Part shown: positions 20,942 to 51,420 of the stretch, in pieces | Position numbering within the stretch: the first letter of the stretch is position 1 | Layout of the letters: each line of letters starts with the position of its first letter | NCBI GenBank assembly: GCA_024654525.1 | Contig: JANLHI010000015.1 | Location: 1 to 53,863, forward strand | Source of the DNA: Patescibacteria group bacterium | Lineage (GTDB): Bacteria > Patescibacteriota > Minisyncoccia > UBA6257 > 2-01-FULL-56-20 | Direction: 5' to 3' | Length of the DNA: 53,863 nt | Notes under the pieces: generated by a model | What the model saw: only the letters and a program-made list of their open reading frames with translations | Databases searched by the model: none | What the model was told of the DNA's origin: nothing | Program-made: the position numbers and the translations under genes

Positions 20942-22417
20942 TCATATCGTAATCTCGTTTTTCATCTTCTCGAACGTCGCATCGCCAATTCCTTTCACAT
21001 TTTTAATTTCCTCGATTGTCTGAAAATCGCCATTTTCATTTCGGTAATCGATAATCCGCTGAGCAATAGTCGTTCCCACACCGGTGATAGTATCGAGCGC
21101 ATCGAGGTTCGCAGTATTAATATTTACTTTTCCCGATACTTCCGACACTTCCGGTTCGGACGACGGTGTCAAGGACTCAACCGATACCGCACCCTCACCA
21201 ACCGTGATTTCATCCTTCATCTTTTCAAAAGTAACATCGCCGATACCGCTTACGCTTTTAATGTCTTCAACAACTTGAAATAAGCCGTTCTGGGTTCGAT
21301 AATCAATCACTTTCTGCGCAAGCGAAGGTCCTATCCCCGTAATATTCTGCAACTCGTCATATCCTGCGGTATTGATATTTATTTTCTCCTCACCTGTCGG
21401 TGACGACTCTTCGGAAGTTACGGAAGGCGAAACACCCGAAGACTCCGACACAGGAATTTGCACTGGCGGCGCGGAGAGAAGAGGCGGAGTGTTACGTGCA
21501 AACATCGAAGAATTTTTCTCGTACGGTGTACCACTCACCACTCCGCTCGTGTTCCAACTCAAATCAATCGCGCTGCGCTCCATGGTTTTCTTTGTCGCAT
21601 TATCCCCCGCCGGCCATCCATGAGAAGCATCCACTTCATCTATTAATACGCAGTGATTATCAAACAAGCGTAGCCACGCACCGCTATTTGAAAGCACGCC
21701 GGTATATATCTTATCCGCAATAACATTCGGCACTACTTCATCATTCCCACGCTCAAGCAAAAAAAGATTTCCTTCTTCGAGACGATTCGTGGCATCGAAT
21801 ATAACTTTGAATTTCCCTGCCTTATCCACTATCCGCCAATCTGCAAGCACAATATATTTTCCGGAATTGTTTTTCAGCTCGATCCACTCTCCCTGTGCAC
21901 CACCGCCACCATCCTCTTCCCCGCGAAGCGGAGATCCCATCCATGCAATCTCGTTAAGCAACACAATATGCGTCGGATTTTTCCCTTTTATAAAATCACA
22001 ATCCTCCACTATATTCGGCACTACTACAGAAGACATGTCGTTCGCAGACTCCGGCACCCCCGACGTTGCATGTAGGGAATTTGCCGGCAACAAACTTGGA
22101 ATAGGTGAACCTGCAACAGGAAGTATCACCTTGCTTTTCGAAGGTTTTGCCGGCGCACTTGCACGGGTCACTATGGGCGCTTCATCGTTCAAAGAAATAT
22201 CGTTTTTATTATCAACAGAACGTGCGCGGGGAATTTCCATCAATAATTTCATCTCCCCTCTTTTTTCACTATCTCCCGCTACATTCACTACGGTACCGGC
22301 AACAATTGCTCCCGCGTCTTTGAGCGAAACGGGGAATCCCGCAAACCGCACCACGGTTCCGTATGAAATTACTCCCGCAATCACCGTGGCCCCCAATGCC
22401 ACGAAAATAACCCGCAT
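20942..22417 (-). CDS. ComEA-like DNA-binding protein: lamin-tail domain plus two helix-hairpin-helix ComEA domains
   Basis: LLNEIAWMG..EWIELKN (LTD); twice KININTA..EL..I.GIG..AQ.IIDYR..NG.F..IE.I..V.GIG..TFEKMK.EIT. Confidence 0.88.
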   Translation of the reverse strand: MRVIFVALGATVIAGVISYGTVVRFAGFPVSLKDAGAIVAGTVVNVAGDSEKRGEMKLLMEIPRARSVDNKNDISLNDEAPIVTRASAPAKPSKSKVILPVAGSPIPSLLPANSLHATSGVPESANDMSSVVVPNIVEDCDFIKGKNPTHIVLLNEIAWMGSPLRGEEDGGGGAQGEWIELKNNSGKYIVLADWRIVDKAGKFKVIFDATNRLEEGNLFLLERGNDEVVPNVIADKIYTGVLSNSGAWLRLFDNHCVLIDEVDASHGWPAGDNATKKTMERSAIDLSWNTSGVVSGTPYEKNSSMFARNTPPLLSAPPVQIPVSESSGVSPSVTSEESSPTGEEKININTAGYDELQNITGIGPSLAQKVIDYRTQNGLFQVVEDIKSVSGIGDVTFEKMKDEITVGEGAVSVESLTPSSEPEVSEVSGKVNINTANLDALDTITGVGTTIAQRIIDYRNENGDFQTIEEIKNVKGIGDATFEKMKNEITI

Positions 22418-22445
22418 ACTATATACAATATCAAATATGAAAAAC

Positions 22446-22473
22446 TTGAAAACTCAAGCAATCACGTTATAAT
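22446..22473 (+). promoter_or_regulatory. Sigma70-type promoter for the tRNA-Asn locus
   Basis: TTGAAA (22446..22451), 16-nt spacer, TATAAT (22468..22473), 10 nt before the degenerate tRNA 5' half. Confidence 0.7.
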
Positions 22474-22483
22474 GGAAACGCAT

Positions 22484-22553
22484 TCTGGCGCCTGTCTACC
22501 GATAGGTAGATAGCTCAGCGGTACCTGCCTGCCGGCAGGCAGGGAGCGGCTCC
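22484..22553 (+). pseudogene. Degenerate 5' half of tRNA-Asn interrupted by two 20-nt insertions
   Basis: tctggcg[cctgtctaccgataggtaga]tagctcagcggta[cctgcctgccggcaggcagg]gagcggctcc. With the inserts removed it matches nt 1-30 of the intact tRNA at 29/30. Confidence 0.92.
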
Positions 22554-22560
22554 AAAGCCC

Positions 22561-22800
22561 ATGATTACAATCTATGCGCTACGAAGCCAAAAAGATGGAA
22601 GAATTTATGTCGGGATGACTGAAAATTTGCAACGCCGGATGGCAGAACATAACCAAGGATTGGTCTTTTCCACAAAAGGATTCTTACCTTGGAAAATTAT
22701 TTACCGTGAAGATGCTCCTGACCGAGTAGCCGCGAGAAAAAGAGAAAAGTTTCTGAAAGGCGGTTCGGGAAAAGAGTATCTCAAAAAGATTCCGGCGTAG
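22561..22800 (+). CDS. Small stand-alone GIY-YIG nuclease (79 aa)
   Basis: TIYAL..IYVGMTENLQRRMAEHN..YRE..ARKREKFLK. Its last codons and TAG lie in tRNA nt 1-10. Confidence 0.9.
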   Translation: MITIYALRSQKDGRIYVGMTENLQRRMAEHNQGLVFSTKGFLPWKIIYREDAPDRVAARKREKFLKGGSGKEYLKKIPA

Positions 22801-22865
22801 CTCAGCGGTAGAGCGGCTCCCTGTTAAGGAGATGGTCGCAGGTTCGATCCCTGCCGCCGGAGCCA
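22791..22865 (+). tRNA. tRNA-Asn (GTT)
   Basis: Acceptor TCCGGCG/CGCCGGA, D arm GCTC/GAGC, anticodon loop CT-GTT-AA, T arm GCAGG-TTCGATC-CCTGC, discriminator G, encoded CCA. Confidence 0.96.
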
Positions 22866-22867
22866 AG

Positions 22868-22914
22868 AAACTAGATACGAACTCATCTTCAAAAAATGAG
22901 TTCGTATCTAGTTT
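22868..22914 (+). terminator. Hairpin with 19-bp perfect arms directly after the tRNA
   Basis: aaactagatacgaactcat-cttcaaaaa-atgagttcgtatctagttt. Confidence 0.75.
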
Positions 22915-23322
22915 AACTGCTCCCGAATTAAAACTTTCGCAAACCCCGAAGGAGAACAAGTTCCCTACGGGGCATGCTTTTGAAATCATTTTGCCAAATC
23001 TGATACACAAATCCAAGACCCTTCTTCGCGTAAAGCTGCGGAAGGGCGCAGAGCGAAATCTGAAATGATGCGCCCCGCCACTATTTTTCTGGGGATATGG
23101 AGGCGGGGCGACGGACTCGCCCGCGCGGACTTCAGCTTTCTTTTTTGAAAAAATTTACGGCTATTGCCTGACTTTATCTTAAACTTTTTATCCAGTGAAA
23201 CACACAGAAAAACAGAGAATTGCTTTCTCACAACCTTGCGTTAATAAAAATATGCTGTTTCGCACAAAACTTTTTGTATCGCCGAAGGATTTTTTGCTAT
23301 GCTGAATTTATAGAACAAAAAA

Positions 23323-23958
23323 ATGGAAACGGTAATCTCACAAAGCTCAACAATGATTCAGTTCATATCCCTGCTAGTACTTGCTTTTATTTTTTGGGGT
23401 GTCCCTTCTATCCTCTACGGTAAGTTCAAAGTGCTATACATTGACCATCCTTTTGCCCACATAATTTGGCATGGACTCGGAGTGTTCATAATAATCCTGT
23501 CTTTCAAAACACGCGTGGCGGAATATTTTTCAGAAATTTCTCAAGTTCATATATCGGCCTTGCTAGTTATTACTCTCCTTTGGATGCTTGTGCCGATACT
23601 GTATAAAAGGTTTCAAACGGAGTATCTCACCACAAAAGAACGTATTGCATATCAACCGACAAAATACTCTGAAATAGTGCTTCAACAAATGGTTGTTCTG
23701 GGAGGATTATTGATATTGGACTGGAATTGGTTCATGTTTGGACTTGTGTTTTTCTCACTACACGTTGTCGCTGTTCTTTTCCTTCCTAAAAAAGCTTTTT
23801 GGAGTACCGCACCCGCCTCACTACTCGGTGGATTTTCCTTTGCTTTTTTGCAGTCGCTAGGAGTAGCCGGTTTCCTCGCATCCTTTTCATTGCATCTTTC
23901 CTTTTACGCCATTCTTCAATCGGGTATCATACCAAAATTTAAATGCTACAAAAGATAG
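23323..23958 (+). CDS. Multi-pass membrane protein, weak CPBP/CAAX-protease-like motifs
   Basis: 211-aa hydrophobic ORF; SEIVLQQ, FSLH and LHLSFY loosely resemble the E, FxxxH and H motifs. Confidence 0.55.
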   Translation: METVISQSSTMIQFISLLVLAFIFWGVPSILYGKFKVLYIDHPFAHIIWHGLGVFIIILSFKTRVAEYFSEISQVHISALLVITLLWMLVPILYKRFQTEYLTTKERIAYQPTKYSEIVLQQMVVLGGLLILDWNWFMFGLVFFSLHVVAVLFLPKKAFWSTAPASLLGGFSFAFLQSLGVAGFLASFSLHLSFYAILQSGIIPKFKCYKR

Positions 23959-24011
23959 TTCCCCTTATCGCCTTTCGATAAATCGTTGAAAGGAGGTTTT
24001 CCTCCTCCGCG

Positions 24012-51064: not shown

Positions 51065-51370
51065 TCACGACTTTCTCGCTTTTAAATCCTTATTATGGCT
51101 ATTCGTGAGACCCCGCACCTTGTCCAAACCACACCGCTTCTTCAGTTCCTGATACGCCTTCCCGAAATATTTTAGTTGCTTTTCTCGCTTCCGCGCACAC
51201 CATTCGTGAAGATACGCTTCGTAATACACGAGTGATACGGGAAGGCGATACTTCGTAGCAAATACCGAGCCTTGGCGATGTTCATCAAAGCGCCTCTGTA
51301 AGTCGTTCGTTGAACCGATATATAATTTCTCATCGCGCTGGCTCTTCAACACATACACATAGTACATCAT
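51065..51370 (-). CDS. Small stand-alone GIY-YIG nuclease (101 aa including read-through tail)
   Basis: MMYYVYVLKS..LYIGSTNDLQRRFDEH..YYEAY..ARKREKQLK. Confidence 0.92.
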   Translation of the reverse strand: MMYYVYVLKSQRDEKLYIGSTNDLQRRFDEHRQGSVFATKYRLPVSLVYYEAYLHEWCARKREKQLKYFGKAYQELKKRCGLDKVRGLTNSHNKDLKARKS

Positions 51371-51385
51371 GGACAAGGTGCGGGG
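51111..51385 (-). mobile_element. Putative 275-bp GIY-YIG mini-element with 16-bp terminal inverted repeats and 5-bp flanking direct repeats
   Basis: TGAGA[ccccgcaccttgtcca ... tggacaaggtgcgggg]TGAGA. The inverted repeats are perfect and overlap the ATG and the C-terminal LDKVRG codons. Confidence 0.75.
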
Positions 51386-51420
51386 TGAGATAAAAACGGG
51401 ATTAACAAGCTCAACACGAA

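Follow-up and report, generated by a model that had tools for sequence, protein, structure and literature searches.

A small GIY-YIG nuclease gene set between a hairpin-broken 5′ repeat and an intact copy of tRNA-Asn: a candidate selfish cassette in a bacterial tRNA transcription unit

The window analyzed here is a stretch of 53,863 nucleotides (nt) from a Patescibacteria group bacterium (GenBank assembly GCA_024654525.1, contig JANLHI010000015.1, positions 1 to 53,863), and its sole tRNA gene, a tRNA-Asn(GTT) at 22791-22865 on the forward strand (called by ARAGORN; 66.8 bits to the Rfam tRNA family), is preceded by a small GIY-YIG nuclease gene and, before that, by a broken second copy of the tRNA 5′ part, hereafter the upstream arm. 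The features of this locus are listed below, with tRNA positions counted linearly from the ARAGORN start; L212 is an orthologous locus described further on, and all loci fetched for comparison carry such L numbers.

22446-22473, forward: sigma-70-type promoter, TTGAAA-16-TATAAT, 11 of 12 matches, aligning with the TTGAAAA promoter of L212
22484-22490, forward: upstream arm piece a, tRNA-Asn nt 1-7, TCTGGCG, one mismatch (C3 to T)
22491-22510, forward: 20-nt hairpin module of the HP2 type, CCTGTCTACCGATAGGTAGA, one mismatch from CCTGTCTACCGACAGGTAGA; not in L212
22511-22523, forward: upstream arm piece b, tRNA-Asn nt 8-20, 13/13
22524-22543, forward: 20-nt perfect palindrome HP1, CCTGCCTGCCGGCAGGCAGG, at the D loop/D stem junction of the arm
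22544-22553, forward: upstream arm piece c, tRNA-Asn nt 21-30, 10/10; this piece stops 2 nt short of the anticodon
22554-22560, forward: 7-nt spacer AAAGCCC before the ATG, without a Shine-Dalgarno sequence
22561-22800, forward: GIY-YIG nuclease open reading frame (ORF), 79 amino acids (aa), of predicted SLX1/UPF0213-like minimal type
22791-22865, forward: intact tRNA-Asn(GTT), CCA encoded, exons identical to the L212 tRNA-Asn
22868-22914, forward: long terminator-like hairpin directly 3′ of the tRNA, with a perfect stem of 19 base pairs (bp), kept in the orthologous locus

The three arm pieces together reproduce nt 1-30 of the tRNA with 29 of 30 positions identical, split by the two 20-nt inserts, and 237 bp separate the arm end from the tRNA start. 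The ORF has no stop codon of its own, since its last codons (ATT CCG GCG TAG) run into tRNA nt 1-10 and the TAG stop is tRNA nt 8-10. An earlier note, made from the letters alone, had described this layout, from promoter through nt 1-30 and the 237 bp with the ORF to the complete tRNA, as well as the borrowed stop codon, and both were confirmed; the two inserts that it had set aside in counting the 29/30 match are indeed present, although they turned out to be conserved mobile palindromic modules and not random indels. Its statement that no integrase is present is borne out by the annotation of the neighboring genes, which encode a dockerin protein, a ComEA/lamin-tail-domain (LTD) protein, a membrane protein, OmdA and an ATP-grasp protein. 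The 263-nt stretch that ends with the ORF start codon, aligned with gaps to tRNA nt 1-50, scored 39.2, compared with a mean of 14.6 (standard deviation 2.4, maximum 27.4) for 1000 shuffles, or z = 10, and a maximum of 25.2 for ~500 random window segments. HP1 has one exact copy in the window, where none is expected, and is absent from L212. The upstream arm and spacer match no known RNA family in Rfam, and the group I intron family RF00028 has no match in window positions 21500-24000 at E values up to 10. The hairpin that follows the tRNA was not called by the terminator scan because it lacks a T run. Separately, window positions 22540-22552 (the end of HP1 plus arm, CAGGGAGCGGCTC) are complementary at 12 of 13 positions to nt 21-33 of the true tRNA (22811-22823), and in the predicted minimum free energy (MFE) fold of the precursor as a whole these two segments pair over the long range in place of the cloverleaf D and anticodon arms.

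Comparison with a related genome shows which copy of the tRNA 5′ end is the original. The ComEA/LTD protein is encoded next to the tRNA on the other strand, and its best relative, 53% identical, is from a genome source-named Candidatus Liptonbacteria; the region upstream of that relative is L212. The two loci share the −35 box, the leader ending ..ACGCAT, identical tRNA-Asn exons and the long post-tRNA hairpin, while L212 has, in the alignment, neither the GIY-YIG gene nor the 20-nt inserts. The L212 tRNA starts exactly where the window arm starts, each directly after the ..ACGCAT leader, and the window arm therefore marks the original start of the tRNA gene. The DNA added in the window, from the first hairpin to the intact tRNA start, comes to 307 nt, consisting of 30 duplicated, 40 hairpin and 237 spacer-plus-ORF nt. 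The L212 tRNA-Asn is in turn split in the anticodon loop by a group I intron of ~232 nt (RF00028, 42.1 bits, E 2e-9, under the gathering score of 50), at a site only ~4 nt from the position where the window arm ends. Homologous sites with and without the nuclease gene thus exist, the site without it being that of a distant, different genus-level relative. The locus of a second ComEA/LTD orthologue (L216) has no adjoining tRNA and is uninformative, and a homology search with the neighbor of the Roizmanbacteria copy matched only itself. Group I introns in the anticodon loop of tRNA-Asn(GTT), inserted after ..CTGT, were seen in two Patescibacteria-type contigs, L212 (2886-2671, reverse strand) and L142 (2310-2583, forward strand), and both intron-bearing tRNAs were missed by ARAGORN. 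In L142 a bona fide group I intron (RF00028, 90.8 bits) and the GIY-YIG cassette occupy one tRNA-Asn gene.

Residues 2-71 of the 79-aa protein match the Pfam GIY-YIG family PF01541 (E 9.5e-14, 51.9 bits against a cut-off of 22.6). Y5, R26, H30 and E62 are invariant in 18 relatives and Y16 is at least 90% conserved; we take Y5, Y16, R26 and E62 to be the equivalents of I-TevI Y6, Y17, R27 and E75. A profile search of the PDB returned UPF0213 BH0048 (1zg2, 1.5e-9), EF2693, SLX1 (5e-5) and I-TevI (7e-3), with the UPF0213 and SLX1 matches spanning 1.5e-9 to 3e-4. The AlphaFold2 model (mean predicted local distance difference test score 95.2; order of secondary structure elements E-E-H-E-H-H) was matched by Foldseek to SLX1, UPF0213, I-TevI and UvrC, the best folds being SLX1 nuclease domains, with template modeling (TM) scores of 0.67-0.72 (0.57-0.72 over all SLX1 and UPF0213 matches) compared with 0.52 for I-TevI. 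The relatives have no invariant Asn downstream of E62, the feature that sets the SLX1/UPF0213 branch, which lacks an invariant Asn after the Glu, apart from the UvrC/homing-endonuclease branch (PMC1564403). Judged by sequence and modeled fold, the protein is a minimal GIY-YIG enzyme of the SLX1/UPF0213 branch and not I-TevI-like. The family comprises 6,099 representative clusters at E ≤1e-10. In the clade found at tRNA-Asn, the ratio of nonsynonymous to synonymous substitution rates (dN/dS) is 0.10-0.23, with dS of at least 1.2; the nuclease ORF is intact and under purifying selection.

The same arrangement recurs in other bacteria. Close homologues of the protein are 50-73% identical, and all of their fetched loci (L001, L002-L011, L257) share the window order, that is, the 5′ part of the local tRNA-Asn, CCTGCCTGCCGGCAGGCAGG, a few tRNA bases, the ORF and the intact tRNA-Asn; the arm matches the local tRNA-Asn even where the acceptor stems differ (TCCCCTG versus TCCGGCG). 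A 67%-identical copy of the protein lies at tRNA-Asn in a metagenome-assembled genome source-named Weeksellaceae. In a metagenome sample of 80 loci, obtained by a profile scan with the ORF family, 44 loci have a tRNA on the ORF strand that either overlaps the ORF stop or begins no more than 30 nt after it, the tRNAs being of the Arg, Leu, Asn, Gly, Lys, Phe, Met, Tyr and Cys types, and 46 of the 48 testable loci have the 5′ part of the same tRNA within 260 nt upstream (z > 4). The ATG usually lies 2-25 nt after the arm end. Both the abutting genes and the upstream duplications had been anticipated by the earlier note, as had tandem expansions, which were found as tandem units with one ORF decayed or lost at five loci (L001, L132, L133, L135, L150). 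Its proposal of cleavage near the anticodon arm fares less simply: most arm ends do lie near the anticodon (32 of 52 within 7 nt), but a fixed cut there is not established because the arm end varies from tRNA nt 15 to 74. Likewise, the duplication of the tRNA 5′ half holds for tRNA-abutting loci, but a mirror form with a duplicated 3′ part also exists. In this form, found at 8-9 loci and frequent among those without a downstream tRNA, the intact tRNA is followed by the ORF and then by a hairpin-broken copy of the tRNA 3′ part reaching to the last base, with the hairpin in the T loop or anticodon stem.

In a neighbor-joining tree of the nucleases, built without support values, the clades follow tRNA type; the Asn clade includes the window protein, a group of relatives that we call class C stands apart, and one Leu clade includes the two orientations and each of the four Leu isoacceptors. 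A search of 2.9 million viral contigs yielded no more than 5 relatives of the ORF and 35 hairpin stretches, a scarcity that makes a phage origin of the cassette unlikely. What emerges looks like a widespread family of selfish DNA, present in dozens of unrelated bacteria and at many tRNA types. At two loci (L008 3412-3680 and L010 688-957) a more distant second GIY-YIG gene lies just 3′ of the cassette-bearing tRNA-Asn, such that two nuclease genes flank one tRNA.

The arms are nearly always interrupted, and of 59 arm inserts 36 are exactly 20 nt long, with 19 being identical HP1 (CCTGCCTGCCGGCAGGCAGG). HP2 (CCTGTCTACCGACAGGTAGA) is found in the arms of four other loci and as its reverse complement in L151, which argues for a feature that acts at the DNA and not at the RNA level. 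More than 120 species-representative genomes contain the HP1 pattern, the hosts among the matches listed being Patescibacteria, Bacteroidota (cultured strains included), Omnitrophota, Planctomycetota, Proteobacteria and others. Among 120 HP1 loci listed, 16 have a tRNA within 800 bp, and in all seven of the tRNA-linked loci that were read (L014, L019, L036, L040, L060, L070, L118) the hairpin breaks an upstream duplicate of the following tRNA, with or without the ORF. Two comparisons show clean 20-nt insertion without target duplication: in L075 the hairpin sits in one of two copies of a 260-nt repeat, and in L136 HP2 is present where the same locus of the close relative L133 has none. Being palindromic and free of target-site duplication at these sites, the modules differ from insertion sequences and miniature inverted-repeat transposable elements (MITEs). 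Some hairpins are longer, with extra sequence between the two 10-nt halves. In the flanks T is depleted at −1 and A at +1, and nothing clear as a target motif was seen there beyond these depletions. The hairpin lies within the loop of a larger hairpin (stem of at least 6 bp) at 9.9% of sites versus 1.9% of controls; the idea that the modules always insert into such loops was set aside, since some 10% of sites against some 2% of controls supports it weakly. Nor did the idea that the hairpins are the joined ends of an ORF-bearing unit gain support, for no such unit was seen among the ~250 fetched loci, and in none of these were CCTGCCTGCC...GGCAGGCAGG ends seen around the ORF. We regard the hairpins as conserved, independently mobile 20-nt palindromic modules that would serve to disable the spare tRNA copy.

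In reference genomes (L012-L131) and viral contigs (L217-L251) the 20-mer CCTGCCTGCC(GGC/GGT)AGGCAGG is mostly intergenic, away from tRNAs and GIY-YIG genes, often among short tandem repeats and in several copies in some contigs, at least 6 of them in the viral contig of L237, L244 and L245. In L241 (2239-2330) a 92-nt tRNA-Met of a viral contig carries the 20-nt palindrome at the variable-loop position, with no duplicate tRNA copy and no GIY-YIG gene nearby; the palindrome might form an extra arm that is tolerated in a working tRNA. In L036 (4020-4225) the hairpin-broken 5′ part of one tRNA precedes a complete tRNA-Met, after which comes an apparent 3′ part of the first tRNA (..GGTTCGATTCCCACCCCTGACACCA), so that one tRNA gene appears to be split around another.

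Signs of turnover and of upkeep are seen side by side. L133 and L136 are the same locus in close relatives, and an extra ORF-less arm is present only in L133. Over all loci the arms differ from the local intact tRNA at 43 of 1815 nt (97.6% identity), and it follows that the arms are renewed or constrained, because a neutral remnant as old as the divergence of the ORFs would have decayed.

The nuclease gene thus lies downstream of the native tRNA promoter and upstream of a complete tRNA copy, with the original 5′ end left as a disabled repeat, and the design is heritable, recurrent, missing from the orthologous site and linked to particular tRNA types. Our preferred explanation, which we hold to be probable, is that the locus is a selfish, free-standing homing-type nuclease cassette with tRNA-derived homology arms, residing inside the tRNA-Asn transcription unit; the earlier note had likewise proposed a small selfish tRNA-targeting element that keeps the tRNA working by means of the duplicated 5′ half, and the checks run support it. 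The upstream copy is the original 5′ end at its native promoter, truncated at nt 30 and broken by two hairpins, and on this explanation the complete downstream copy would keep the cell supplied with tRNA-Asn. The nuclease gene, having no promoter, would ride on that of the tRNA in a transcript of arm, ORF and tRNA, from which the tRNA would be freed by normal processing; cleavage by RNase P at tRNA nt 1 would strip the ORF of its stop codon and may keep nuclease levels low. The nuclease would cut a cassette-free tRNA-Asn gene, and repair would copy the cassette from the cassette-bearing gene, with the flanking tRNA repeats as its own homology arms. Conservation of tRNA sequences across taxa would let the cassette enter the same tRNA in distant genomes, and arms made of tRNA sequence would explain 67%-identical proteins at tRNA-Asn in contigs of different phyla. 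The hairpins would both disable the spare copy and shorten the uninterrupted homology, and a crossover from repeat to repeat on the ORF side of a hairpin would lose the ORF and leave a useless, hairpin-broken tRNA.

Several observations weigh against this explanation. Hairpins break up the upstream copy, but the downstream one is whole and has the sequence of the L212 exons; this whole copy is the same as a naive target, and a sequence-specific homing nuclease should cut its own host, with no immunity mechanism evident at the cassette-bearing tRNA. Variation of the arm end between tRNA nt 15 and 74 leaves no single insertion point. Empty alleles, a check named by the earlier note, were found in part: L212 is an orthologous site without the element, but its genome is of another genus-level group and its tRNA has a group I intron in place of the element, and no empty allele was found within one species, exact-protein look-ups with both window flanking genes and with the neighbor of the Roizmanbacteria copy being unmatched. 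Among the 120 HP1 loci listed, the family ORF is nearby in 6 and the other 114 are far from any GIY-YIG gene. In three tandem arrays it is the decayed unit that adjoins the intact tRNA, which is the opposite of what simple repeated insertion into the intact copy would give, and mismatches amount to 1.65% in arm segments outside the first hairpin, distal to the ORF, versus 3.0% in segments between hairpin and ORF (p = 0.06, a trend only). Lastly, bacterial standalone Slx1-like proteins have been held to be vertically inherited and non-selfish (PMC1564403).

By analogy, the nearest described design is that of the mobile endonuclease ORFs (mORFs) of fungal mitochondria, which make "gene hybrids" of Allomyces atp6 and of Glomus atp6, atp9, cox2 and nad3 (PMC3630166). 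The mORFs resemble the cassette in being free-standing endonuclease ORFs in a host gene, one end of which is duplicated, with one functional copy and co-transcription, and differ from it in occupying organelle protein-coding genes, in duplicating the C-terminal part, in that the endonucleases named for them are of LAGLIDADG type and in having an inserted copy that is foreign and 64-81% identical (PMC3630166). The cassette, unlike mORFs, sits in a bacterial tRNA gene, usually duplicates the 5′ end, has copies that are ~97% identical, encodes a 79-aa SLX1-like GIY-YIG protein and carries 20-nt hairpin modules in the remnant. A foreign, diverged gene-end copy of the mORF kind is not what is found here, with 29/30 identity in the window and 97.6% overall. 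Phage T4 SegB is a free-standing GIY-YIG homing endonuclease whose gene, as here, has tRNA genes for neighbors; it cuts DNA of the tRNA region in a related genome without SegB and is inherited with the flanking tRNA genes (PMC2330249). SegB is, however, a larger phage enzyme encoded between different tRNA genes, with no duplication of a target tRNA and no hairpins (PMC2330249), and the window protein is nearer to UPF0213/SLX1 than to the I-TevI catalytic domain.

Like SLX1 and the bacterial UPF0213 proteins (BH0048, EF2693, YhbQ-type), the window protein consists of a minimal domain and has no auxiliary DNA-binding domain. In eukaryotes, SLX1 acts together with SLX4 as a structure-specific nuclease in repair. 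A survey of the superfamily placed the selfish GIY-YIG members in a branch other than the Slx1-like one (PMC1564403); unlike the housekeeping view of bacterial SLX1/UPF0213 proteins taken there, the present subfamily behaves as mobile DNA.

Two further comparisons concern the landing site and the palindromes. Integrase-type tRNA islands and prophages, which are kilobases in length, carry a tyrosine or serine integrase and a fixed att core and duplicate the 3′ end of the tRNA. Such islands are like the cassette in using a tRNA gene as landing site, in preserving the tRNA by means of a replacement segment and in leaving a direct repeat, whereas the cassette has no integrase, shows mostly 5′ duplication of variable length and measures ~300 bp. 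Small mobile GC-rich palindromes, among them the GC clusters of yeast mitochondria, the double-hairpin elements of Allomyces and bacterial REP (repetitive extragenic palindrome)- or MITE-like repeats, are, like the modules here, short hairpins inserted cleanly at many sites, including structural RNA genes. The modules here differ in being only 20 nt long, identical across several phyla, free of target duplication and concentrated in disabled tRNA copies beside this nuclease family. No prior description of a GIY-YIG/tRNA cassette or of the exact hairpin was found in the literature, most subscription journals being outside the coverage.

Some relatives of the nuclease are organized differently. 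The class C relatives (L152, L165, L169, L170, L189, L191, L200, L205, L206) form units of 277-330 bp with terminal inverted repeats (A)CCCCGTTAGAG / CTCTAACGGGG(T) and flanking direct repeats of 5-7 nt, such as GTCAAC in L206 and GTAGC in L165; in L170 and L191 such a unit is inserted at the conserved RHSFATHLL motif of a tyrosine-recombinase gene, which it interrupts. The combination of inverted and direct repeats is a transposon-like signature. The window itself contains a second gene of the family, with no adjoining tRNA.

51065-51370, reverse: second GIY-YIG gene of the family, matching the family profile at E 1e-24 and PF01541 at 5.5e-13

This gene is associated with a perfect 16-nt inverted repeat, ACCCCGCACCTTGTCC / GGACAAGGTGCGGGGT, whose arms at 51371-51386 and 51110-51125 span 277 bp; its neighbors encode a PemK/MazF-like toxin, a 23S rRNA intervening-sequence protein and a PD-(D/E)XK nuclease.

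A broader and more speculative proposal, to which we give a minority chance, is that no mobile DNA unit seen so far is smaller than the 20-nt palindromes (CCTGCCTGCCGGCAGGCAGG and its relatives), which, identical across bacterial phyla, would be footprints of SLX1-like GIY-YIG nucleases or be moved by these in trans, and that palindrome and nuclease form a two-part selfish system. Were this true, the system would colonize tRNA genes and use the tRNA as portable homology arms for spread across taxa, the palindrome would be a "poison pill" through which a cell that lost the nuclease gene would die, and the 277-330-bp inverted-repeat units would be the first transposon-like elements of prokaryotes with a GIY-YIG enzyme at their core.

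Among the explanations that compete with the homing-type cassette, the one that survives best, though we think it unlikely, makes the palindromes or inverted-repeat ends the true mobile agents and the GIY-YIG protein a transposase-like mobilizer that cuts stem-loops or cruciforms; tRNA genes would be struck as hairpin-rich sequence, and the duplication would be a by-product of repair that survives by rescuing an essential gene. It draws on the fold, nearest to that of the structure-specific nuclease SLX1, on HP1 and HP2 as clean 20-nt insertions across many phyla with HP2 in both orientations, on the versions with cargo between the 10-nt halves, on the class C units with their terminal inverted and 5-7-nt direct repeats, on the second window gene inside its 16-nt perfect inverted repeat, and on the above-chance occurrence of hairpins in the loops of larger ones (9.9% versus 1.9%). 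Yet most hairpin sites lie outside such loops, the hairpins lack target duplication, a GIY-YIG ORF is near only 6 of the 120 hairpin loci listed, and no fetched locus has a unit with CCTGCCTGCC...GGCAGGCAGG ends around the ORF; at tRNA loci, moreover, the hairpin goes with the disabled copy, whichever side of the ORF that copy occupies, rather than with the ends of the ORF.

It is less probable still that the ORF is a domesticated factor of benefit to the host, co-expressed with tRNAs and with the upstream fragment as a regulatory leader, for example in the metabolism of tRNA or RNA or in keeping introns and integrating elements out of tRNA genes. Consistent with such a role are the purifying selection on the ORF, the apparently tight co-transcription with tRNAs in many lineages, as judged from gene arrangement, and the pairing of the leader with the 5′ part of the true tRNA in the precursor MFE fold; in addition, a prokaryotic Slx1-like domain is reported to be fused to a TrmH-type tRNA methyltransferase, for which a role in RNA metabolism was suggested (PMC1564403). 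The ORF is, however, missing from the orthologous locus L212 and patchy over tRNA types, it decays in tandem arrays and leaves ORF-less arms, the mirror orientation exists, relatives are inserted within a tyrosine-recombinase gene, and arm length and hairpin number are too variable for a defined leader RNA. The occurrence of HP2 in both orientations speaks against it as well, in pointing to DNA.

We consider it very improbable that the locus is the decayed remnant of a group I intron with a GIY-YIG homing gene, or of an integrase-type island. The group I intron of the L212 tRNA-Asn does lie ~4 nt from the window arm end, 32 of 52 arm ends lie no more than 7 nt from the anticodon, GIY-YIG genes are common passengers of introns, and the protein has a weak NCBIfam match to TIGR01453. 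But RF00028, detected in L212 and L142, is not found in window positions 21500-24000, where the 7-nt spacer and the ORF abutting the tRNA leave no room for a ribozyme, and the protein is SLX1-like and not I-TevI-like by the comparisons above. A group I intron origin is rejected on the absence of the ribozyme together with the coexistence of cassette and bona fide intron in L142, and an integrase island on the absence of an integrase among the flanking genes and the duplication of nt 1-30, that is, of the 5′ and not the 3′ end. Chance similarity, a local duplication unrelated to the ORF or an assembly artefact has a negligible probability, for although the repeats are small (7, 13 and 10 nt), the alignment lies at z = 10 against shuffles and the same architecture is present in dozens of independent assemblies and sources, with the hairpin also in isolate genomes.

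If the homing-type cassette is real, bacterial tRNA genes, including those of tiny Patescibacteria genomes, would join the habitats of free-standing nuclease genes, and the cassette would represent a compact route by which selfish DNA enters an essential single-copy gene while the host survives. Part of the "housekeeping" SLX1/UPF0213 family, with its thousands of sequence clusters, would then be reassigned to mobile DNA. A 79-aa nuclease with an apparent preference for particular tRNA genes would be a small, tractable model of target finding by a minimal GIY-YIG enzyme, and the cross-phylum 20-nt palindrome in its own right points to recognition of DNA by a protein. For annotation, the cassette would account for small "GIY-YIG family protein" genes that overlap tRNAs, for the truncated tRNA-like fragments before them and for overextended ORF calls. 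For example, many family members in the databases (P0148-P0297) are called at 100-145 aa with the domain C-terminal, and gene callers have probably run these ORFs upstream through arm and hairpin, the palindrome reading as PACRQAG.

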